Shown here: positions 1 to 25,245 of the stretch, in pieces | How positions within the stretch are numbered: the first letter of the stretch is position 1 | Layout: each line of letters begins with the position of its first letter | Source of the DNA: a virus | Virus record (IMG/VR): IMGVR_UViG_3300045988_150395 | Coordinates: 1-26,613 of that record | DNA length: 26,613 nt | Direction: 5' to 3' (one strand) | The notes under the pieces: model-generated | What the model saw: only the letters and a program-made list of their open reading frames with translations | What the model was told of the DNA's origin: nothing | Database searches by the model: none | Made by a program: the position numbers and the translations under genes

Positions 1-45
1 AACTTAAATCAACTACTATTAACGGAAACCTATCCGTTACTGGGA
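1..45 (+). repeat. R element copy 1 (45 bp, aacttaaatcaactactattaacggaaacctatccgttactggga); encodes (Q)LKSTTINGNLSVTG
   Basis: Identical 45-mer occurs five times (1, 383, 823, 1205, 1645). Confidence 0.85.
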
Positions 46-389
46 ATATCTCATGTCCTGGATTAAAAATATCTAATTTCGGGACAATGACTTATAATTA
101 TAGCGGATTAAGTCCACTAGGAGGAAATTATTGTTATTGGAATGATTATTTTTTATATGCACATATAGCATTTCAATTTCCAAGCAATATTCCAAGTGGA
201 ACTTTATTAATGACATTTCCAACTTCAACAACTGCAAAGCTAGATAATGTAGGATTTTGCGGTTTTAATAACTCAACAGGAATACAACACATTGTAGCAT
301 TTAATTTTATTGGAAATAAAATGTCTATGAATACAAATAGACCTCAAGCAGGTAACTTTAGTTTTGATATAATTTTACCTAGAACTTAA
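1..389 (+). CDS. Cassette A1, 5'-truncated by the window edge (codon start at nt 3). Constant leader ..LKSTTINGNLSVTG plus variant-A C-terminal domain (NISCPGLKISNFGTMTYNYSGLSPLGGNYCYWNDY...FSFDIILPRT); hypothetical variable protein
   Basis: In-frame continuation of the same reading frame as the 816..1211 copy. Stop TAA at 387-389 lies inside R copy 2. Confidence 0.6.
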   Translation, partial: LKSTTINGNLSVTGNISCPGLKISNFGTMTYNYSGLSPLGGNYCYWNDYFLYAHIAFQFPSNIPSGTLLMTFPTSTTAKLDNVGFCGFNNSTGIQHIVAFNFIGNKMSMNTNRPQAGNFSFDIILPRT

Positions 390-427
390 ATCAACTACTA
401 TTAACGGAAACCTATCCGTTACTGGGA
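383..427 (+). repeat. R element copy 2; contains the TAA stop of cassette A1 in frame 0 and the LKSTTINGNLSVTG codons in frame +1
   Basis: Exact 45-bp match to copy 1, then diverges (g428 vs a46). Confidence 0.85.
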
Positions 428-774
428 GTTTTACTAAAAACGACACATGGTCGGGTCATATTAATTGTAACTCTGGTTTTACAGTTATAGTTAATTTTTT
501 TAAAATAGGTAATTTAGCTATCGGAACTTTTGATTTTACTACTCAAAGTGGAAAAACTATTCCAGCCTGGACTTGGACTAGACTTTGCCCTGCGGGGACT
601 ATACCAGTTAACTTTAGACCTAAATCAAGTAATAAAGATATGACTATTTCTTTACAAGAAGCAGGAGCAGGTAAAGTTGGGTTTAATATTGATGGAAGTA
701 TTGATATAAACTGCTATAAAGCATTGGGAGCAAAATATGAAGGCGGCATGCAAGTCATTTATATGGTAGAGTGA
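385..774 (+). other. Silent cassette B1. Intact 129-codon ORF in the +1 frame relative to A1, beginning with the R-encoded LKSTTINGNLSVTG then SFTKNDTWSGHINCNSGF...GGMQVIYMVE, stop TGA 772-774. No start codon or RBS of its own
   Basis: Open frame from R copy 2 to the TGA. Clear paralog (shared motifs IPAWTWT, CPAG.IP, FRP, ISLQ, GAG, DGSI, QVIY) of the expressed cassette C. Confidence 0.55.
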
Positions 775-815
775 GATATTCCAATTTTTTAGAGATAAAA
801 AGGAGGAAAATTTAC

Positions 816-1211
816 ATGGCGCAACTTAAATCAACTACTATTAACGGAAACCTATCCGTTACTGGGAATATCTCATGTCCTGGATTAAAAATATCTAATT
901 TCGGGACAATGACTTATAATTATAGCGGATTAAGTCCACTAGGAGGAAATTATTGTTATTGGAATGATTATTTTTTATATGCACATATAGCATTTCAATT
1001 TCCAAGCAATATTCCAAGTGGAACTTTATTAATGACATTTCCAACTTCAACAACTGCAAAGCTAGATAATGTAGGATTTTGCGGTTTTAATAACTCAACA
1101 GGAATACAACACATTGTAGCATTTAATTTTATTGGAAATAAAATGTCTATGAATACAAATAGACCTCAAGCAGGTAACTTTAGTTTTGATATAATTTTAC
1201 CTAGAACTTAA
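816..1211 (+). CDS. Cassette A2, 131 aa: MAQLKSTTINGNLSVTG plus variant-A domain; hypothetical variable small protein
   Basis: RBS aaaggagg 8 nt upstream of ATG 816. Identical to A1. The ORF-track start at 771 is a GTG overlapping the B1 stop, so ATG 816 is preferred. Confidence 0.7.
   Translation: MAQLKSTTINGNLSVTGNISCPGLKISNFGTMTYNYSGLSPLGGNYCYWNDYFLYAHIAFQFPSNIPSGTLLMTFPTSTTAKLDNVGFCGFNNSTGIQHIVAFNFIGNKMSMNTNRPQAGNFSFDIILPRT
823..867 (+). repeat. R element copy 3 (directly after ATG GCG C of cassette A2)
   Basis: Exact 45-bp match. Confidence 0.85.
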
Positions 1212-1249
1212 ATCAACTACTATTAACGGAAACCTATCCGTTACTGGGA
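1205..1249 (+). repeat. R element copy 4 (stop of A2 / head of silent cassette B2)
   Basis: Exact 45-bp match. Confidence 0.85.
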
Positions 1250-1596
1250 GTTTTACTAAAAACGACACATGGTCGGGTCATATTAATTGTAACTCTGGTT
1301 TTACAGTTATAGTTAATTTTTTTAAAATAGGTAATTTAGCTATCGGAACTTTTGATTTTACTACTCAAAGTGGAAAAACTATTCCAGCCTGGACTTGGAC
1401 TAGACTTTGCCCTGCGGGGACTATACCAGTTAACTTTAGACCTAAATCAAGTAATAAAGATATGACTATTTCTTTACAAGAAGCAGGAGCAGGTAAAGTT
1501 GGGTTTAATATTGATGGAAGTATTGATATAAACTGCTATAAAGCATTGGGAGCAAAATATGAAGGCGGCATGCAAGTCATTTATATGGTAGAGTGA
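1207..1596 (+). other. Silent cassette B2 (identical to B1); +1 frame, no start codon, stop TGA 1594-1596
   Basis: Exact copy of B1 within the 822-bp duplication. Confidence 0.55.
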
Positions 1597-1637
1597 GATA
1601 TTCCAATTTTTTAGAGATAAAAAGGAGGAAAATTTAC

Positions 1638-2033
1638 ATGGCGCAACTTAAATCAACTACTATTAACGGAAACCTATCCGTTACTGGGAGTTTTAATAGG
1701 AATTATAGTTGGAGTGGCAATTTTACTTGTAATTCTGGTTATCGTGCATCTGGTTATTTATGGAGAATGGGTAATTTAGTTATTGGTACTTTTACTTTTG
1801 CTACAAATAGTGGGATAAGTATACCAGCTTGGACTTGGACTACAATTTGTCCTGCTGGAGCTATTCCAGCTAGCTTTAGGCCAAATGTGAATAGAGGTCA
1901 ATATATTTCTTTACAAGGTGTTGGAGCTGGACAGATAAATTTTAATGCAGATGGAAGTATTAGTATATGTTGTTATGGAACTTTTGGAGGTCCTTGGGCA
2001 GGAGGATTACAAGTTATTTATTTTGTAGATTAA
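1638..2033 (+). CDS. Cassette C, 131 aa: MAQLKSTTINGNLSVTG plus variant-C domain (SFNRNYSWSGNFTCNSGYRASG...GLQVIYFVD); paralog of the silent B cassettes
   Basis: RBS aaaggagg plus ATG 1638. Roughly 45% identity to the B cassette by eye, with conserved Cys/Trp positions. Confidence 0.7.
   Translation: MAQLKSTTINGNLSVTGSFNRNYSWSGNFTCNSGYRASGYLWRMGNLVIGTFTFATNSGISIPAWTWTTICPAGAIPASFRPNVNRGQYISLQGVGAGQINFNADGSISICCYGTFGGPWAGGLQVIYFVD
1645..1689 (+). repeat. R element copy 5 (head of cassette C)
   Basis: Exact 45-bp match; shares a further 6 nt with the B-type copies before diverging. Confidence 0.85.
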
Positions 2034-2122
2034 AATTAAAAATCTCAATATTTAGAATAAAAAACTAAATGGACTTTTTTCTTATTTTATTGTAATATAT
2101 AAATAAAAAGGAGATACCAAAA

Positions 2123-3684: not shown

Positions 3685-4455
3685 ATGTTCAATAATGCAG
3701 CTAGTGGCTATAGTTTAGCCGATATCGCAGCCGCTACAGGTTCTACCCGCAATGATAATGGTTGGGGCTTTGGTGGCGATGGAGGAGCTTGGTGGATTAT
3801 TATACTTTTCCTTTTCTGTTTCGCAGGATGGGGAGGAAATGGAAATGGTCTCTTTGGAGGCGGTTCCACAGGCTCTGGAATTACTGATGGTTATATTTTA
3901 ACATCAGATTTTGCCAACGTAGAAAGAAAAATTGATGCCGTAAATAATGGTATTTGTGATGGATTTTACGCCATGAATACAGGCATGCTGAATGGATTTG
4001 CTGGTATTAATAATAATATTACACAACAAACTATTGCAGATATGCAGAATACTAATGCTATTAATGCAGGTATTACTAATTTGGGTACTCAGTTACAGCA
4101 ATGTTGCTGCCAGACAAGATACGAAGACGCTCAGAATTTTGCTCAATTAAATTATAATTTAGCAGACCAAGAATGTTCAACTCGTAGAGCTGTTACTGAT
4201 GCGACAAGAGATTTAATGGAAAATCAAAACGCTAATACTAGAAGTGTATTAAGCGCAATTCAAGAAATGCAAACACAGGCACTGCATGATAAGATTACTG
4301 AACTTACAGCTGTTAATTCTGACCTTAAATTCCAAGCTAGTCAAGCAGCTCAGAACAGCTATCTCATCAATGCACTTAATCCTTCACCTGTACCTGCATA
4401 CACAGTTCCTAATCCTTATGCAGGTTATAGAAACTGTGGATGTTCAACTTTATGA
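3685..4455 (+). CDS. Hypothetical protein: Gly/Trp-rich N-terminus with one TM helix (WWIIILFLFCFAGWGG), N/Q-rich coiled-coil-like middle with a QQCCCQ motif, C-terminal CGCSTL
   Basis: Perfect RBS aaaggagga; 256-aa ORF. Confidence 0.6.
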   Translation: MFNNAASGYSLADIAAATGSTRNDNGWGFGGDGGAWWIIILFLFCFAGWGGNGNGLFGGGSTGSGITDGYILTSDFANVERKIDAVNNGICDGFYAMNTGMLNGFAGINNNITQQTIADMQNTNAINAGITNLGTQLQQCCCQTRYEDAQNFAQLNYNLADQECSTRRAVTDATRDLMENQNANTRSVLSAIQEMQTQALHDKITELTAVNSDLKFQASQAAQNSYLINALNPSPVPAYTVPNPYAGYRNCGCSTL

Positions 4456-4524
4456 TTAATTAGTTTGACTACTAGGGAGCCTGCCAGCTCCCTAGATAGT
4501 TAAATTCCTGAAAGGAGACTATTT

Positions 4525-4947
4525 ATGGAACTAACTAGTAATGTAGTACAAACCGTAAACGCAAATGATAATGTTGTATTCATTACAACAAGAATCCCTG
4601 GTAACTGTTCAGTTATTCATACCGAGGGAAGTGGAAATATTAAAATGAGAGGCTTGTCTAATAATCAATGCCGCTCAAGATTCAAAGTAACTTTCACTGG
4701 TAATATTGCAGTTCCAACTGGTGGTACCGCAGGAGCTATCTCATTAACTATTACTATAGATGGTGAGGCAGTTCGTACCGCGCAAATGATTGTAACACCT
4801 GCCGCAGTAGAGCAATATTTTAATGTAGCTTCATGTGTATACATTGACGTACCTACTGGATGCTGCTCAACCGCAGGAGTAACTAATACTTCAACACAAA
4901 CGATTAACGTTCAAAATGCTAATCTTATAGTAGAAAGGGTGGCGTAA
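4525..4947 (+). CDS. Hypothetical small Cys-containing beta-rich protein (140 aa)
   Basis: RBS gaaaggaga; T/V/N-rich composition typical of beta-sandwich proteins. Confidence 0.55.
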   Translation: MELTSNVVQTVNANDNVVFITTRIPGNCSVIHTEGSGNIKMRGLSNNQCRSRFKVTFTGNIAVPTGGTAGAISLTITIDGEAVRTAQMIVTPAAVEQYFNVASCVYIDVPTGCCSTAGVTNTSTQTINVQNANLIVERVA

Positions 4948-4948
4948 T

Positions 4949-5485
4949 ATGCATAGACTTTATGATATGAAAAACTGTTTAATTAGTGCTGCCCAATCTC
5001 AAATGGGAAATCTCCAAGACTGCGATGCTGGAGAGCTTGGCGAAGTAATTGATATGATAAAAGACCTTGAAGAAGCAATTTATTATTGTACAATTACAAA
5101 AGCTATGAATGAAAAAGAAGAAAATAATTCTTCTCAATATCGTATGTATTACAGGGAAAGAGGAGGACAAAATTATGATAATTCCTCTTCATATATTGAC
5201 TATCCTAGAATTGATAAGTATAATGATAAAAGCAATGAACCTTATCATGAAAGAGAATTTCCTTTAGAGATGCGGGATGCGCGTGAGGGCCGTAGTCCAG
5301 TACGTCGCCGCATGTATATGGAATCTAAAGAACTCCACAAGGATAAAGTAACCGCAATGAAAGAACTTGAAGAATATATGCAAGAATTAAGTTCTGACAT
5401 TTGTGAAATGATTGAAGACGCTTCTCCAGAAGAGAAACAATTACTTCAAAAGAAAATTATTGCTTTATCAAATAAAATACAATGA
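4949..5485 (+). CDS. Hypothetical acidic coiled-coil protein (178 aa)
   Basis: Start 2 nt after the previous stop; ATGA overlap with the next gene. Confidence 0.5.
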   Translation: MHRLYDMKNCLISAAQSQMGNLQDCDAGELGEVIDMIKDLEEAIYYCTITKAMNEKEENNSSQYRMYYRERGGQNYDNSSSYIDYPRIDKYNDKSNEPYHEREFPLEMRDAREGRSPVRRRMYMESKELHKDKVTAMKELEEYMQELSSDICEMIEDASPEEKQLLQKKIIALSNKIQ

Positions 5486-5799
5486 TTAAAATAAATGGAG
5501 AAACTTGGAGAATATTCCTAGTTTCTCCTAATCATCCAATTCTATATACTAATGGTTCTTATACACTTGGGGCTTGTGATAATGTTACTCATTCAATTTA
5601 TATTAATGAAAACCTTAATTCTCATAAAATGAAAAAGGTATTATGCCATGAGTTAACACATGCCGCAATGTTTAGTTATGATGTAGAATTAACATTGGAA
5701 CAAGAAGAACTATTAGCAGATTTACTTGCCACTTATGGACAAGAAATTGTTGATATGACAAATGAAATTTTTATTAAATTAAAAAGGAATATTTATTAG
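5482..5799 (+). CDS. Small putative zinc metallopeptidase-like protein (HExxH motif: CHELTHAAMF)
   Basis: ATGA-coupled ORF; single HELTH motif in a 105-aa protein. Confidence 0.5.
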   Translation: MIKINGETWRIFLVSPNHPILYTNGSYTLGACDNVTHSIYINENLNSHKMKKVLCHELTHAAMFSYDVELTLEQEELLADLLATYGQEIVDMTNEIFIKLKRNIY

Positions 5800-5828
5800 C
5801 ATGATTAATAAATATTCCTTTTTTTTAT
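5785..5828. terminator. Bidirectional rho-independent terminator at the convergence point of the plus and minus modules
   Basis: 14-bp stem aggaatatttatta/taataaatattcct, followed by T-runs on both strands (tttttttt on plus; tttttaattt on minus). Overlaps the TAG of 5482..5799 and abuts the TAA of 5829..6257. Confidence 0.7.
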
Positions 5829-6257
5829 TTAATCAGTAATATGTTTTGCTTTTTGTACAACTAAAGCAAATAAACTGTCACCATTATGGTTACCTTTTAA
5901 ACCATTATAAGCATCATGGTCTTCAATACACTGTTGGTATTCTTCTAATGTTATTTCATGGTCTTCAGCTAATAATGCTTGACATTCAGCTATGAATTCT
6001 TTCTTTTGCATTGAAAGAATTCCTTTTCTAAGAGCATCTAATTGTTCTTGTAACTTCTGGTCACCATCTCTTGATTCTTTTTCTATTCCATCATATCGAG
6101 AAAACATATCATTTTTAAGATTTTCATAAAATCTAGCACGTTCAGCATTTTGTTCGTCTTCTTTCATTTTCATATATTTTTTGAAAAAGTATCCACCGCC
6201 TGCAACTATTAAGCCAAAACCAAATTCAACCCAATATTTAATTATAAAGTCTAACAT
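5829..6257 (-). CDS. Hypothetical membrane protein (N-terminal TM, then charged coiled coil), last gene of the minus-strand operon
   Basis: RBS AGGAGG (revcomp of 6262-6270) upstream of ATG 6257. Confidence 0.55.
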   Translation of the reverse strand: MLDFIIKYWVEFGFGLIVAGGGYFFKKYMKMKEDEQNAERARFYENLKNDMFSRYDGIEKESRDGDQKLQEQLDALRKGILSMQKKEFIAECQALLAEDHEITLEEYQQCIEDHDAYNGLKGNHNGDSLFALVVQKAKHITD

Positions 6258-6318
6258 GGTGTTCCTCCTACCTTAATTCTCATATAGAATTAAAAAATAG
6301 GAAAGTCAAATTTATTTA

Positions 6319-6807
6319 TTAAGACCAATCAAACATTTCTGTTTCTTCTTTTACAAAATAATGAGTTCCAATACATATTGCATCAGCTTCATCTTCTGTA
6401 CATTTCAATCCATAAGTAGATTGAACATATGCTTGCGCGTTCTTCTTTTGTTCTGCCCTAACTTTACCCTTAATCTGTAAAGTAGACCGCCATTGTACTG
6501 CTAGAACTGAACTATTAGGCATTTTAGTTTCTGTAAAAAATTCACATAAAACACCAATAACTTCCGCAAGTTTTTTAAATGTTAATACATTATTTCCCGC
6601 ACCATTTTTTAATTGTATATCTTCAAAGATAACTTCATCTACTTCATATTTTTCAATTAATTCCTTAACCTTATTCTTAATATTCATTAATCTTTCACCA
6701 AAATCTTTATCGGTAAAAGTAAAATGTCCATAATCAAGAAGTTTGCCGTCTTCAAAAACGGCAAACCCTGATATTCGACTGCTTTGGTCTAAAGCTAAAA
6801 GTTTCAT
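6319..6807 (-). CDS. ruvC: RuvC-like Holliday junction resolvase (phage type)
   Basis: N-terminal LLALDQSSRISGFAVF (RuvC motif LGIDPGSRxTGYAV), mid-protein acidic EVDEVIFED, C-terminal EADAICIGTHY (RuvC DAxDALAxA..H). Confidence 0.65.
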   Translation of the reverse strand: MKLLALDQSSRISGFAVFEDGKLLDYGHFTFTDKDFGERLMNIKNKVKELIEKYEVDEVIFEDIQLKNGAGNNVLTFKKLAEVIGVLCEFFTETKMPNSSVLAVQWRSTLQIKGKVRAEQKKNAQAYVQSTYGLKCTEDEADAICIGTHYFVKEETEMFDWS

Positions 6808-7379
6808 TAGGTAGCAGAGATAAGAGTTGGAGATACTGCAACATCATCAGTGGAACCGAATCCGCCAGCTCTTGTCTTATTGAACTGAGTATCATCTGAA
6901 GTTTTATAATATTTCTTAATAATACCCTGTCCAATAATGTCTCCTTTTTTAATTTGAATAGGATAAGGACTTAAATTAATTAACTGAAAGAAAATTTCTC
7001 CTTCATTGGCTTCACAATCATAATAATCTGCATCAATAATACCAACGCCATTAGCTAAGACAAGCCAATATTTAAGCGGAGTAGATGAACGAACCGAAAG
7101 TTCAAGGTATTTATCCGTTGGGAGTTTACATTTAACTCCAGTAGATATAAGAACTGGTCTTGCTCCTGGCTTATCAGTCATTTTCTTCATTTCATCTAAT
7201 GTAAAAACTGAATTTTCTGAGATACCATTTTTGCACATTTCTGTTACTGACTGATAATATGGCGGAATTACTACATCTTCTGCGGCAGCCATATCATAAC
7301 CTGCGGCATTTGCTGTTGCGCGTTCTGGCATTTTAATATCTTCGTCTTTAAATTTAGAAACTTTTTTAAACTTAATCAT
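6807..7379 (-). CDS. dut: dUTP diphosphatase (dUTPase)
   Basis: All five dUTPase motifs: AAGYDM, VRSSTP, GIIDADYY..GEI, KKGDIIGQGI, TRAGGFGSTD. Confidence 0.8.
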   Translation of the reverse strand: MIKFKKVSKFKDEDIKMPERATANAAGYDMAAAEDVVIPPYYQSVTEMCKNGISENSVFTLDEMKKMTDKPGARPVLISTGVKCKLPTDKYLELSVRSSTPLKYWLVLANGVGIIDADYYDCEANEGEIFFQLINLSPYPIQIKKGDIIGQGIIKKYYKTSDDTQFNKTRAGGFGSTDDVAVSPTLISAT

Positions 7380-16466: not shown

Positions 16467-17663
16467 CTAATCTGCAAGTACTACAAGTTTAATACCAGCT
16501 CTAGTGCAGGCTGTATACATAGCAGAACGATGTTCAGCTTTATCAAACGGAAATCCTTCCTCAAGAGCTAAGACTTTAGGCCACTCACTGCCCTGTGCTT
16601 TCCAAAAAGTTAAAGCATATCCATATGTGAGTTCTTCTGGAACCATATCCTTATATCTTGTTTTATTTATTTTATATTTCATTTTATTATCTAAAATAGG
16701 AATACCAGTAGTAATACATTGCTCATCGCAATGCAGTGCATCAAAAGTATCACCATAATCTGTAATAAAAGTTCCATTTAGATAAGCGACTCTATTTTCT
16801 GGTATACCAAAGGAACTAAAACGTTCTGGTAAATAAAATGCTTCATAATTAAAATCATTTAAAGTTCCAACGCATCCATTAGTTAAATAACCGCCTTTAT
16901 CTGACATAATATCCCAATTATTTCTAAGAACAATAAGTTTTTCACCTTTTTCTATTGGCTTCGTATAACCTCTTAATTGTCTTGCTATTTGGTTAAGTTT
17001 ATTACGAGTTTTATTTGTAGCACATAATGTCTGGTCTGCCCAAGTAATCATTGTTGGGTCAAAATCTTTTTTAGGTAATACTATTGCATCATCTGATTTA
17101 AAACCACTAATAGATTCTCCTTTACGAATTCGCATACTTAAACGAATGATACCACTTTCTTGCGCTTGTCGCATAATCTCATCAAGAAATATATGTGGTG
17201 CATATAAAAGATTATTATTCTGACTTTTCTCGATTGGTGGAAGCTGACCTGGATCGCCGCAAAAAATAACATAAACAGGATAACTTAAAAGTAATTTTGT
17301 CATATCCATTGGGAGCATAGAACATTCGTCTACAACAACTACTTTTGCATCTATTGATTCTACTGGCTCTCTTGTAAATTTTCCATTAGGCAAAGGTTTA
17401 GTTTTGTATAATAATTTATGTGCAGTTTTACAATTAGGATTTCCTTTTTGACGTAAAACCTCTGCAGCTTTACCTGTATAAGCACAATAAGCTACATCTA
17501 ATTCTGGATCAACTCCATAAGAAGAAAGAGCTGAAATAATAAATCTAATAAGAGTTGACTTTCCGGACCCCGCATACCCAGATATTACGGTACATTTCTC
17601 TCCGTCAAGGTATCTTTGAACTGCAATTTTAAGTCCTTGCTCCTGTCGTAATGTAAGTTCCAT
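16467..17663 (-). CDS. SF1B DNA helicase, Dda/RecD-like
   Basis: Walker A GYAGSGKST, motif II VVVVDECSM, motif III GDPGQLPPI, motif V WKAQGSEW, motif VI YTACTRA. Confidence 0.8.
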   Translation of the reverse strand: MELTLRQEQGLKIAVQRYLDGEKCTVISGYAGSGKSTLIRFIISALSSYGVDPELDVAYCAYTGKAAEVLRQKGNPNCKTAHKLLYKTKPLPNGKFTREPVESIDAKVVVVDECSMLPMDMTKLLLSYPVYVIFCGDPGQLPPIEKSQNNNLLYAPHIFLDEIMRQAQESGIIRLSMRIRKGESISGFKSDDAIVLPKKDFDPTMITWADQTLCATNKTRNKLNQIARQLRGYTKPIEKGEKLIVLRNNWDIMSDKGGYLTNGCVGTLNDFNYEAFYLPERFSSFGIPENRVAYLNGTFITDYGDTFDALHCDEQCITTGIPILDNKMKYKINKTRYKDMVPEELTYGYALTFWKAQGSEWPKVLALEEGFPFDKAEHRSAMYTACTRAGIKLVVLAD

Positions 17664-22097: not shown

Positions 22098-24731
22098 TTA
22101 TTCAAATGTCATCATTCTACTATCGTCAGTAACGTTAATAGAGACATTATTTATTTCTTTAATATCATAATTATAAGTTGTACAAAACATAGGTTCAATT
22201 CTACAAGTTCCTAAATCTGCTTTACACCATAAGTAAACTCCTTTATATTGTCCTCGTCTATTCTTATATATTGATAATTTGATTGTTGGTGTATCAAAAG
22301 CATTTGTTGCTAAGATACTTTGTAATGCTTCTAAGTCTTTAGGTGTTACGCTAAGTAAGATACTACCATAATCAATTTTATCTGCGATTGATTTTGCACC
22401 ACGAAGTAAATTCTGATCAGGTGTTTCTGAATCCTTATAAGTCCCATTTAGCTGAGTTGCAGACATAATAAAAATACCATACTGATTACATAAATCTTTT
22501 AAACGATTAGATAACATAAAAAGAATATTATCCTCTCGAAGTTTTACACCGCCGGAACGTTTAGTTATCTCTTCAAGAATTTTCAGACTGGTATGTATGT
22601 AGTCATGAAATACGTATAAAACTCCATGGTCACGAATATTTCTCTTTATCGTGTTCTCTATATCCTGTAAATTAAAGTCCGGCAATTCTTCTACATATAA
22701 AGGAGCTTTGGAAAGAATTTCTGCTGCTTTAAGCACCCTATCCTCTTCATCTCCTTCATATTTACCATTTAAGATATGCTCTTCATTTACATTTGAAAGA
22801 AAAGCTAACATCATTGTTTGAATTTCTTCCAATTCCTGCTCAGTCGTAATAAACAGGGTAGGATTACAAATTCCTGTTCCTATCCATCCAAAAGTCTCAT
22901 CATATATATGACTACAAGCTATATAACAAGCATCAGCAATCATAGAACGAGTGTTGTGAGTTACAATGAAATCATTCATTAAGAATAAATGAGAATCATT
23001 ATCTACTGTAAAACAAGTCATAGGAACTTTTTTATCAGTTTTTTCTATGTTTACAATAGCTATATGGTCTTTAAACTCTTGACGTTTATTAGAATTAGCA
23101 TAAGCTATTGCTCTATCTTTTTTTCTTTGTAAATGAAAACATTTAGGTTTAATTTCTTTTTTACACTGAATTTGTATTTTGTAGCATTCTCCAGTAGTAT
23201 ATTTATCTTCTCTTTTATCTATAAGATAATTAGCAATAAAACCTAAGCTTCTACATAAATAAATAAAATCATCTCTTAACTGCGGGCTGACTGTTGTAAA
23301 ACTCATTCTGCCTTTTGTATCTATACCACCATCTGTATCCATAAGTCCTTGGAGTAATTCAAACCTCTGCTCTATACTTCCATGAAGATAAGTTTTCGGA
23401 ATAAATTTATCTTCAGATTTAGCCATAAGAAGTTCTGGACATTCTTTCAAAAATTCCTCTACCCAAATATTGTGCTTTGGATTATTTATATTTTTAAATA
23501 CCCAATTATAATTCATATGAGTATAGCTATGCGGATAAAATTCATTTCCCAATAGCTTAGAAATATAATTAGGAATTTCTTCATCTTCGGAAGAAAAATT
23601 TAAACTCTTATTAGAAGGAATATATCTAAAACTACCATCTCCTAAAAAAGCTCCCATTATATATGGATGTAAATAATATTCTTTTTCAGGAAATTCAACA
23701 GGTTCATTTAATTTGATATGAAATCTATAACCTTTATTTGAAGAATCCTTTAAACCATTTTTTAACTTTAAGGCTCTATTATAAATAGTTTCAATATCTT
23801 CTACACGATAAGCTTTTCCCCTATGAGATTCATATCTATATTCCCATAAATGTTCTCCACAACATTCTGCGACAATACCGTTTGAAAAAGTAACTTTCCA
23901 AATCTCTTTATCTTCTGGTTGAGGATAAATTCTCAAAACTTTAGTTGGTTTACCATCTTGTCCAAATAAATAATCACCAACTTTAATTTCATCCACTCTC
24001 TTATCACCATTAGGAGTAGGAATAATTGTATAATTAGGAATAGCCTTACCAATACCAGTTGCCGCAGACCGCAAATAAAACTTTTTTAATCTCGCGCCAC
24101 GAGTAACTGTATTAATAAGAGGTCCATATAATGGAACACCCACTTCTGGATATTGTTTAAATTTTTCAATTAAATCAAAAACACCTTCGCCTGCTTGTTC
24201 ACTAGCATTTTGAACATCATCAACATATTGCATTCTGATAAGTTCAATTTTATCATTCACTCTACTGGCTATGTCAGTTAAAGAACAATTATCAAGTAAC
24301 TCTTCTTGTTCTTGCTTCTTTTTCATATCTAATATATTATCTGGGTCATATATATCAGATACATCAATTCCAAAATTATCAAATGCTCTTAATAGAGTCA
24401 TTTTTTTAAGTCGATTATAATAATAATCAAAAGCTAAAGGGGAAGCACCATCTGAGGCTTTAATTAACCACTCTTCACCTTTTTGCTGTTTATATAAAGC
24501 TCCACTGGTTGGATGTGTTTCAAAAAAATCAGATACAGTTTTTAAATTTACCTCTTTTGCGCCTTGCTCATGAATTTTATATAAAGCCCCAAAAACTATT
24601 TTATGAAATTCATTAGAAAAATCTTCTTCATTTATTGTATATCTATCTTTTTCATCCAATAAAGATAAATTTTTAAATACATTTCCTATAACTTGAACTA
24701 TAGCCGAAACATCTACATATTTACTTGCCAT
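22098..24731 (-). CDS. dnaB: DnaB-family replicative helicase precursor containing an intein. Start ATG 24731 preferred; the ATG at 24749 is part of the RBS GAGGAGG
   Basis: DnaB N-terminal domain; split P-loop SAATGIGK / TRSMIADA; C-terminal motifs IFIMSATQLN, RGAKSIADKIDYGSIL, IYKNRRGQYKG. 883-aa ORF is too long for DnaB without an insertion. Confidence 0.85.
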   Translation of the reverse strand: MASKYVDVSAIVQVIGNVFKNLSLLDEKDRYTINEEDFSNEFHKIVFGALYKIHEQGAKEVNLKTVSDFFETHPTSGALYKQQKGEEWLIKASDGASPLAFDYYYNRLKKMTLLRAFDNFGIDVSDIYDPDNILDMKKKQEQEELLDNCSLTDIASRVNDKIELIRMQYVDDVQNASEQAGEGVFDLIEKFKQYPEVGVPLYGPLINTVTRGARLKKFYLRSAATGIGKAIPNYTIIPTPNGDKRVDEIKVGDYLFGQDGKPTKVLRIYPQPEDKEIWKVTFSNGIVAECCGEHLWEYRYESHRGKAYRVEDIETIYNRALKLKNGLKDSSNKGYRFHIKLNEPVEFPEKEYYLHPYIMGAFLGDGSFRYIPSNKSLNFSSEDEEIPNYISKLLGNEFYPHSYTHMNYNWVFKNINNPKHNIWVEEFLKECPELLMAKSEDKFIPKTYLHGSIEQRFELLQGLMDTDGGIDTKGRMSFTTVSPQLRDDFIYLCRSLGFIANYLIDKREDKYTTGECYKIQIQCKKEIKPKCFHLQRKKDRAIAYANSNKRQEFKDHIAIVNIEKTDKKVPMTCFTVDNDSHLFLMNDFIVTHNTRSMIADACYIACSHIYDETFGWIGTGICNPTLFITTEQELEEIQTMMLAFLSNVNEEHILNGKYEGDEEDRVLKAAEILSKAPLYVEELPDFNLQDIENTIKRNIRDHGVLYVFHDYIHTSLKILEEITKRSGGVKLREDNILFMLSNRLKDLCNQYGIFIMSATQLNGTYKDSETPDQNLLRGAKSIADKIDYGSILLSVTPKDLEALQSILATNAFDTPTIKLSIYKNRRGQYKGVYLWCKADLGTCRIEPMFCTTYNYDIKEINNVSINVTDDSRMMTFE
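22953..24044 (-). mobile_element. Intein (364 aa) with LAGLIDADG homing endonuclease, inserted in the DnaB P-loop between GK and T. Begins with Ala, ends THN, +1 residue Thr
   Basis: Block A AIPNYTIIPTPNGDKRVDEIKVGDYL; block B CGEHLW; LAGLIDADG motifs YIMGAFLGDGS and LLQGLMDTDGG; block F VPMTCFTVDND; block G FIVTHN followed by T. Extein junction restores GIGK|TRS. Confidence 0.75.
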
Positions 24732-25245
24732 TAATATCAACCTCCTCATCTAAAAAATTAAATTTCTTTTTTGGTTTTTTAATTTTTCTTTGTGGCTGAG
24801 GGATTGTTATATTAATAGTTTTAGGTATATAATTTTCAATATTTACTTCTGAATTTCTCTTATTAACGCTCCACATCTTATAATAATAATTCTTAGCTTC
24901 TTCATATACATATGGAACTATTCCTATTGAACGACTAGCTTCATCTTCAATAGCATTACCCTGTACTTCATAAAAATATATTAATGCTTTATGAATACCA
25001 GAATATGTAAAACCTAATTCAGTTACATATTTTTTAATAAGCAAATTTGTTCTTGCAAAATCATATTTACCATTATATAAAGTATATAAATATTTGTTTA
25101 AATTTGCTTTATCAACTTCTGTTTGATTTATTGGTCCCTCTGGACATTTTTTATGAGCATATCTTCTTGAACTTACTTGGATAAAAGGAACTTTATCCCT
25201 ATCAAATTGTCGCCCACAATTAACACATTTACAAGGATGTGCCAT
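24721..25245 (-). CDS. Hypothetical Zn-ribbon protein (N-terminal CxCxxC..HxxC), possible replication initiation / helicase-loading accessory. Start ATG 25245 preferred over 25260
   Basis: GAGGAAAA RBS inside the longer ORF favours ATG 25245; overlaps the dnaB start. Confidence 0.45.
   Translation of the reverse strand: MAHPCKCVNCGRQFDRDKVPFIQVSSRRYAHKKCPEGPINQTEVDKANLNKYLYTLYNGKYDFARTNLLIKKYVTELGFTYSGIHKALIYFYEVQGNAIEDEASRSIGIVPYVYEEAKNYYYKMWSVNKRNSEVNIENYIPKTINITIPQPQRKIKKPKKKFNFLDEEVDINGK

Follow-up and report, generated by a model that had tools for sequence, protein, structure and literature searches.

A putative full-length class 3 intein in the P-loop of a DnaB-family helicase from an uncultured SPbeta-like gut phage

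Results

An in-frame insert splits the Walker A motif of a phage helicase

The stretch of viral DNA analysed here (IMG/VR record IMGVR_UViG_3300045988_150395, positions 1 to 26,613; hereafter the window) represents the replication module of an uncultured SPbeta-like phage. On its minus strand lies the gene of a DnaB-family replicative helicase, whose Walker A motif (P-loop) is split between the Lys and the Thr by a 364-residue insert. The insert is very probably a full-length class 3 intein, consisting of a HINT splicing domain and a two-motif LAGLIDADG domain. The features of the gene and of the insert are listed in Table 1.

The mechanically called open reading frame (ORF) spans 22098..24749 on the minus strand and encodes 883 amino acids (aa). 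The ATG at 24731 follows the sequence GAGGAGG at a distance of 9 nt, and the N-terminus that it gives (MASKY; MASKYVD as in all homologues) matches the homologues; this ATG is almost certainly the true start, and the precursor has 877 aa. Pfam recognizes the DnaB N-terminal domain and DnaB_C in the host protein, and the DnaB_C match becomes contiguous after the insert is removed (profile positions 9-245 of 255, E = 3.7e-15). Without the insert, the protein shares 35-40% identity with SPbeta YorI and Enterococcus phage DnaB. The insert is absent from all of these, and the tblastn matches to them are split into two pieces, covering 56-61% of the query. Metagenome assemblies from IMG, ENA, and Logan contain the exact 877-aa protein, the longest contig with it measuring 178.5 kb. 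The IMG name of the protein is 'replicative DNA helicase' only.

Read on the minus strand, 22953..24044 translates to 364 uninterrupted codons, AIPNYTIIPTPNG...MNDFIVTHN (AIPNYTII...NDFIVTHN). The plus-strand reading of the same interval is full of stops, placing the feature on the minus strand. On its N-terminal side the insert borders on ...KKFYLRSAATGIGK (...SAATGIGK) and on its C-terminal side on TRSMIADAC..., with the junction at GIGK|T. A search with the predicted ligated product retrieves an intein-less protein of 514 aa (P0110), which is 96% identical to the query and stands for 155 member sequences. It reads ...SAATGIGKTRSMIADACYIAC... (GIGKTRSMIA), exactly the predicted ligated product. 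The DNA that encodes it (L003) is colinear with the window flanks and reads TCAGCCGCCACAGGAATTGGTAAA|ACAAGGTCAATGATAGCAGATGCT at the intein-less junction site. Another 12 intein-less loci likewise have K|T or K|S at the junction, and the intein-less relatives are mostly 509-513 aa long. Shifting the borders by one residue either way fails to give GIGKT. Therefore, the element starts with Ala and ends with Asn, and the C-extein has the Walker A Thr as its first residue.

The insert thus has the properties of an intein: it lies in frame in a conserved host protein, it is absent from the orthologues, and its removal restores the Walker A motif. Its junction between the Walker A Lys and Thr of a DnaB-family helicase is that of the P-loop site, and we assign it to 'DnaB-b', the site also used by mycobacterial DnaB inteins. 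An earlier note on this DNA had described an 877-aa DnaB ORF with a 364-aa insertion between GIGK and T that begins with Ala. The minus-strand translation and the intein-less protein confirm the ORF and the insertion, and the intein-less allele sets the border at Ala uniquely.

Table 1 Features of the intein-containing dnaB gene of the window
Feature	Position	Strand	Basis or remark
dnaB-family replicative helicase gene, predicted intein-containing precursor, SPbeta yorI homologue	22098..24731	-	877 aa + TAA stop; ORF list, start, Pfam
Ribosome-binding site GAGGAGG	24741..24747	-	9 nt upstream of ATG 24731; direct sequence reading
N-extein, 229 aa, ends in Walker A ...RSAATGIGK	24045..24731	-	
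Intein, 364 aa, Ala1 to Asn364	22953..24044	-	Translation; borders from intein-less P0110/L003; AlphaFold; Foldseek
Splicing block A (AIPNYTIIPTPNG), Ala1, without N-terminal nucleophile	24006..24044	-	Ala1 in 64/77 and 109/145 relatives
Splicing block B (GIVAECCGEHLWEY)	23838..23879	-	Holds Cys61-Cys62, His65, Trp67
Cys61-Cys62 (B:6-7)	23859..23864	-	
His65 (B:10)	23850..23852	-	77/77 relatives; aligns to His65 of MP-Be, 6bs8, 6rix
Trp67 (B:12)	23844..23846	-	74/77 relatives; aligns to Trp67 of MP-Be, 6bs8, 6rix
LAGLIDADG homing-endonuclease domain, ~residues 101-325	23070..23744	-	Pfam, Foldseek, PI-SceI alignment
LAGLIDADG motif 1 YIMGAFLGDGSF, residues 128-139	23628..23663	-	Asp136 at 23637..23639
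LAGLIDADG motif 2 LLQGLMDTDGGI, residues 230-241	23322..23357	-	Asp238 at 23331..23333
Splicing block F (PMTCFTVDNDSHLFLM)	22977..23024	-	
Cys344 (F:4), predicted branch-point nucleophile	23013..23015	-	Aligns to MP-Be Cys320, VPVRC Cys of 6rix/6bs8
Splicing block G (DFIVTHN) + C-extein Thr+1	22950..22973	-	His363, Asn364 after Thr362
Thr362 (G:5)	22959..22961	-	75/77 relatives
Thr+1 codon	22950..22952	-	Thr+1 in 68/75 relatives
C-extein, 284 aa + stop, opens with Walker A Thr, carries remaining RecA-like ATPase domain	22098..22952	-	

The insert carries the class 3 signature

Class 3 inteins are defined here by the lack of a nucleophile at position 1, a Trp at B:12, a Cys at F:4 that replaces the usual Asp, and a Thr at G:5; the definition and the mechanism of the class have been described (PMC2807308, PMC5050341, PMC6195587). 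The insert has all four features, in the form of Ala1, Trp67, Cys344, and Thr362. Blocks A, B, F, and G are all recognizable, with His65 at B:10, the penultimate His363, the C-terminal Asn364, and Thr+1. Cys344, His65, His363, and Asn364 are present in every one of 77 inteins aligned with MAFFT, and Lys-1 is found in 70 of 75 relatives.

An exhaustive phmmer search of 1.84 billion cluster representatives returns 12,669 proteins at E <= 1e-10, the best metagenomic homologue of the intein having E = 5.5e-154. Among the 145 best new representatives, 134 have the Trp-Cys-Thr (WCT) triplet and 118 have GK at positions -2/-1. The block-F Cys is present in every one of the 144 that cover this position. 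The catalytic residues are near-invariant across ~220 relatives.

Inteins of known structure agree with this assignment. In a phmmer search of all PDB chains, MchDnaB1 (6rix, 1.6e-10; 6riy, 4.4e-10) and Msm DnaBi1 (6bs8, 1.9e-08) rank first, and the class 1 intein gp41-1 (6qaz) ranks lower (2.9e-05). The alignments pair GEHLW with AAHQW (HLW/HQW), VPMTCFTVDNDSHLFL with VPVRCVEVDNPAHLYL (VPMTC/VPVRC), and VTHN with PTHN. The counterparts of Trp67, Cys344, and Thr362 are Trp67/Cys320/Thr339 in the intein of mycobacteriophage Bethlehem (MP-Be), Trp67/Cys118/Thr137 in Msm DnaBi1, and Trp67/Cys124/Thr143 in MchDnaB1. In accordance with the earlier note, which had pointed to a Trp in block B (GEHLW), a Cys in block F (MTCFTV), and THN|T at the C-terminal junction, the insert contains GEHLW, PMTCFTV, and THN|T. 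The non-contiguous WCT signature that the note had drawn from these motifs also holds, as Trp67, Cys344, and Thr362 align at B:12, F:4, and G:5 to characterised class 3 inteins. A Trp and a Cys out of place, which the note had named as a refuting outcome, are not what the alignment shows.

A LAGLIDADG domain is nested in the predicted HINT domain

The AlphaFold2 model of the intein, computed from a 53-sequence alignment, has a predicted local distance difference test score (pLDDT) of 96.0 and a predicted template modelling score (pTM) of 0.93. In a Foldseek search of the PDB, PI-SceI comes first (E = 8e-17, template modelling score 0.68), together with other intein-endonucleases. MchDnaB1 leads the mini-inteins, followed by Msm DnaBi1 and then gp41-1, and the Hedgehog HINT domain is also matched. 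The model and these matches place the splicing part in the HINT fold. I-DmoI and I-SceI match the central domain. Because of the matches to PI-SceI, the mini-inteins, I-DmoI, and I-SceI, the predicted architecture is a HINT domain (~residues 1-100 and 326-364) with a nested LAGLIDADG domain.

Pfam detects LAGLIDADG_3 at 6.8e-11 and Hom_end at 2.8e-05. The two LAGLIDADG motifs that the earlier note had counted are found at residues 128-139 and 230-241. They form two helices, each ending in an acidic residue, which together with the fold matches agrees with a two-motif monomeric LAGLIDADG enzyme of the alpha-beta-beta-alpha-beta-beta-alpha fold. In the HMMER alignment, Asp136 pairs with Asp218 of PI-SceI and Asp238 with Asp326, which we take to be the catalytic acids of PI-SceI. 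The two Asp residues are kept in 56/77 and 63/77 relatives, respectively. When the endonuclease region alone was searched against the PDB, the unrelated 4m0m came out on top; a narrower query gave the PI-SceI alignment.

The intein is polymorphic, constrained, and apparently mobile

Clustering at 90% separates 49 intein-containing from 155 intein-less sequences of the same helicase, and both forms occur on contigs of ~146-184 kb. We estimated the ratio of non-synonymous to synonymous substitution rates (dN/dS) from three pairwise comparisons of inteins (the window and the loci L004 and L009), for which dS is 0.33-0.50. In the HINT part the ratio lies at 0.05-0.08 and in the endonuclease part (225 codons) at 0.09-0.14, indicating that both domains are under purifying selection. 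The exteins have values of 0.01 (N-extein) and 0.076 (C-extein).

The intein and its host gene differ in their relatedness between phages. At the nucleotide level, the intein of L009 is 91.8% identical to that of the window, whereas the N-extein is 64% and the C-extein 70% identical. In 20-codon windows, identity climbs at the N junction (63% to 90%) and drops again at the C junction (95% to 77%). The flanking genes of L004 and of the window share 95-98% protein identity. The superfamily 1 (SF1) helicase of L004 (11220..12637, 763 aa) carries a class-3-type intein of its own at the P-loop, SGK|AQPIN...CIVTHN|TTLV, which is 38% identical to the dnaB intein. The near-identical orthologue of this SF1 helicase in the window (16467..17663, minus strand, AAA_30/UvrD_C_2, 398 aa) is intein-free at exactly the same site, reading SGYAGSGK|STLI.

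The polymorphism, the discordance in L009, and the second intein in L004 make up the pattern predicted by homing, from which a present-day activity of the endonuclease can only be inferred. On these comparisons, the intein looks recently mobile. The suggestion in the earlier note that the endonuclease may still be active gains indirect support from the catalytic Asp residues, the purifying selection, and the signature of horizontal transfer.

The N-extein of the window is 95% identical to that of the intein-less L003 overall, yet synonymous differences crowd the junction (window 24006..24090 and 22905..22952), with 8 in the 45 nt that lead up to it and 7 in the 21 nt that follow. The crowding may represent a co-conversion tract or changes of the homing site.

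Proposed mechanism of splicing and homing

Splicing, the block-F branch, the activity of the endonuclease, and the need of replication for splicing are put forward by analogy, and the splicing steps follow the biochemistry of the MP-Be intein and Msm DnaBi1 (PMC2807308, PMC6195587). Since its P-loop is split by 364 residues, the 877-aa precursor would be unable to bind ATP normally and would be inactive as an ATPase. Ala1 would be incapable of the usual acyl shift, and the thiol of Cys344 would instead attack the Lys(-1)-Ala1 peptide bond. His65 would activate this attack, and Trp67 and Thr362 would position the residues, giving a thioester-branched intermediate. The N-extein would then be handed to the hydroxyl of Thr+1, forming the standard block-G branch. 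Cyclisation of Asn364, aided by His363, would free the intein, and an O-to-N shift would restore GIGKT in a helicase of 513 aa. The freed intein could cut the intein-less dnaB of co-infecting relatives at the P-loop-coding site by means of Asp136 and Asp238, and repair of the cut would copy the intein into the intein-less allele. As far as the visible 26.6 kb of the genome go, replication of the phage would need splicing.

Block B reads ECCGEHLW, with two adjacent cysteines. Cys62, which should adjoin the scissile bond, may pair with the catalytic Cys344 in a disulfide or in binding a metal. Disulfide and metal behaviour has been reported for Cys48-Cys118 of Msm DnaBi1, and by analogy Cys61-Cys62 near Cys344 may act as a redox- or zinc-sensitive trap that gates the maturation of the helicase.

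Points against the assignment and alternative explanations

Several observations weigh against reading the insert as a splicing class 3 intein with a homing endonuclease. The WCT motif is required but does not suffice. Grafted onto gp41-1, it leads to cleavage and not to splicing (Beyer et al., PMC7664689), and therefore membership of class 3 by sequence does not prove the mechanism. Position B:7 is Cys62, with Cys61 beside it, as against Ser in the MP-Be intein and Asp in Msm DnaBi1. The Pfam HINT model stays below its threshold (19-20 bits vs a cut-off of 32.1). The composition of the intein (25-30% GC) is no different from that of the host gene and gives no compositional sign of recent import; therefore, the acquisition is not very recent. 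The dS of ~0.34-0.46 between copies likewise points to an acquisition that is not very recent. In addition, what keeps the endonuclease domain constrained could in part be its folding, needed for splicing, and not nuclease activity.

The last two points would also suit an element that splices with a dead endonuclease, its patchiness being due to ordinary recombination among co-infecting phages and to precise loss rather than to homing. The endonuclease has been lost from many class 3 inteins in P-loops, Msm DnaBi1 and MchDnaB1 among them, and shorter variants of 206-290 aa occupy the same site in relatives. However, both catalytic Asp residues are present, aligned to those of PI-SceI and kept in relatives at the frequencies given above, and the endonuclease part has a low dN/dS over its 225 codons in all three comparisons. 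The breakpoints in L009 fall within ~20 codons of the intein borders, between exteins that are only 64-70% identical, where general recombination would be inefficient. We therefore consider a dead endonuclease unlikely. A chemistry other than that of class 3 is less probable still. Thr+1 could attack the N-junction directly, as in the KlbA-like inteins of class 2, for which Ala1 is typical too. In class 2 inteins, Cys+1 attacks the N-junction, and they are not known to have the WCT triplet. By contrast, the residue at +1 is Thr here, the WCT triplet is present, and F:4 is Cys in 77/77 and 144/144 relatives. Another thiol could act first, for example that of Cys62 at B:7, which should adjoin the scissile bond, where B:7 of the MP-Be intein has been modelled (PMC2807308); B:7 is Cys in 34 of the 77 relatives. 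However, the residue at B:7 varies among relatives (C/N/S/A/D, including Ala), and Cys62 is therefore no obligate nucleophile. In the MP-Be intein, moreover, S62A had little effect, whereas C320A abolished splicing (PMC2807308).

The insert might also be a degenerate remnant that no longer splices, with the helicase gene inactive and the phage relying on the DnaB of its host. Non-splicing class 3 intein pseudogenes are reported, such as Arth_1007 of Arthrobacter (PMC3196547), and only 26.6 kb of the phage genome are visible. Against this, every catalytic position is intact, the exteins are under strong purifying selection (dN/dS 0.01 and 0.076), and the 49 distinct intein-containing alleles keep the reading frame intact on contigs of ~146-182 kb. 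We regard a remnant as scarcely credible. A full-length class 3 intein with both a HINT and a LAGLIDADG domain, separating the Walker A Lys from the Thr in the phage helicase, is the explanation that we hold to be very probable.

Comparison with known inteins

Msm DnaBi1 (6bs8) and MchDnaB1 (6rix/6riy) reside in the same DnaB family and at the same Walker A Lys|Ser/Thr site, the N-extein of MchDnaB1 ending in SVGK. Ala1, His65, and Trp67 are numbered identically in them and in the intein of the window, and the block-F Cys and THN are common to both. They are its best sequence matches among solved structures and its best fold matches among mini-inteins. For Msm DnaBi1, the class 3 mechanism has been demonstrated experimentally (PMC6195587). 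Both are endonuclease-less mini-inteins in bacterial chromosomes, whereas the intein of the window is borne by a phage and has a complete LAGLIDADG domain. The mycobacterial DnaB-b inteins are ~25% identical to it over the HINT core and have Ser at +1 and Asp at B:7, where the window has Thr and Cys. Because the founding MP-Be intein is not in a P-loop, the mycobacterial DnaB-b inteins are the closest site-equivalents.

The MP-Be intein, the founding member of class 3, resembles the intein of the window in being full-length and phage-borne, with a LAGLIDADG domain and Thr+1. The two align end to end with 28% identity (E = 9e-34), and His65, Trp67, the F:4 Cys, and Thr-His-Asn are in register. 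These are the residues mutagenised by Tori et al. (PMC2807308). The MP-Be intein differs in having Pro1, Ser at B:7, and a length of 341 aa, as against Ala1, Cys, and 364 aa. We recovered it from AY500153 (L001, L002), where its Pro1, Trp67, Cys320, and Asn341 agree with the numbering of Tori et al. (PMC2807308). There it interrupts the 903-aa gp11, a hypothetical protein beside the portal gene, after ...SQDQ, and the site has no P-loop. Kelley et al. 2016 named this site TerL1-c (PMC5050341). The annotated DnaB-like protein of Bethlehem, gp62 (273 aa), was searched for the founding intein, and none was found; gp52, annotated as a phosphoesterase, has a separate Cys1-type intein. Thus, the earlier note was right that class 3 was first described for a mycobacteriophage intein; the DnaB host that it named is not borne out by AY500153, in which the host is gp11 (TerL1-c).

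Class 3 inteins that hop between P-loops (TerL1-a, PhoH, and helicases; cluster 1 of Anaeramoeba) also occupy GK|T/S sites (PMC5050341, PMC10710043), and their promiscuity across non-homologous proteins and proposed phage origin are known from the same work. Relatives that are 30-45% identical to the intein of the window lie at GK|T/S in PhoH, AAA_33 kinases, AAA_24, SecA-DEAD-type and UvrD/AAA_30 helicases, and terminases. The copy in the window belongs to a sub-clade in the DnaB of SPbeta-like gut phages, and its closest relatives (47-67% identical) are nearly all in DnaB. PI-SceI of yeast VMA1, the best structural match of the whole model, has the same plan of HINT and two-motif LAGLIDADG domains; it belongs to class 1, having Cys1 and Cys+1, is only ~15% identical, and possesses an extra DNA-recognition region.

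In-frame TAG codons in sister phages

In L005, L006, L008, L009, L011, and L014, conserved replication genes contain in-frame TAG, never TAA or TGA. The TAG codons are mostly aligned to Gln in the window proteins (e.g., SAT*LNG vs SATQLNG), and RecJ alone has up to 15. This pattern fits TAG-to-Gln recoding in the sister phages. No in-frame TAG is seen in the window, L004, L015, or L016, and TAG terminates 3 of the 27 ORFs of the window. The code is the standard one in the window and in L004.

In L009 (CAVDWX010000098.1; dnaB at ~4216..6837), ~2,300 aligned host-gene codons contain 19 TAG, five of them in the dnaB exteins. The intein of L009 (4909..6000) has none in 364 codons, and TAG accounts for 0 of 9 Gln codons in the intein vs 5 of 21 in the exteins. 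The depletion is marginal (0 observed vs ~3 expected from the locus-wide density, P ~0.05). The TAG-free intein suggests import from a standard-code phage. It is possible, and we offer this tentatively as a rather doubtful idea, that the intein lineage moves across a genetic-code boundary between standard-code and TAG-recoded phages. If so, gene flow between phages with different codes could be traced by their inteins. The transfer would then run in one direction only, as TAG-free copies can enter recoded genomes, and TAG-bearing copies cannot return.

Genomic context and other features of the window

The window encodes AAA_24 (YorG-like), YorH-like, DnaB (YorI-like), RecJ-like DHH, SF1 helicase, DnaE-type polymerase III alpha, guanylate kinase, and NrdD proteins. 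Relatives are found on contigs of up to ~176 kb, binned into metagenome-assembled genomes of diverse Firmicutes from sheep, deer, rabbit, and human gut. The cultured phages (SPbeta and phages of Enterococcus and Enterocloster) are only distantly related (<41% protein identity), and among 50,697 phage records, megablast found no match to 25 kb of the window. No tRNA gene was found in the 26.6-kb window.

Two further insertions or duplications were observed. In L016 (6642..7728), the dnaB C-extein is broken after ...RGAKSIAD by ~1.08 kb out of frame, beyond which the helicase frame continues; a group I intron, or some other mobile insertion occupying a second site, may be the cause. In the window, 1..2050 (plus strand) contains a perfect 822-bp tandem duplication (1-300 = 823-1122; 383-478 = 1205-1300; 494-623 = 1316-1445) and a diverged third unit, encoding paralogous small proteins of ~130-146 aa that start with MAQLKSTTINGNLSVTGN. 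The duplication is either a real array of paralogues or an assembly artefact.

Implications

That class 3 inteins occupy the P-loops of ATPases, among them the DnaB of phages and bacteria, is well documented. The copy in the window joins a large known family, and the current understanding of inteins is unchanged. The gene product should be annotated as the precursor of a DnaB helicase that contains a class 3 intein, whose splicing domain is missed by the Pfam HINT model. Compact class 3 inteins with Thr+1 are of interest for protein engineering. To the family, the window adds a full-length, endonuclease-bearing copy from low-GC gut phages at the P-loop site of the mycobacterial mini-inteins. 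The coexistence of natural intein-plus and intein-minus alleles in genomes of ~180 kb offers a convenient system for the study of homing and, possibly, of conditional splicing.

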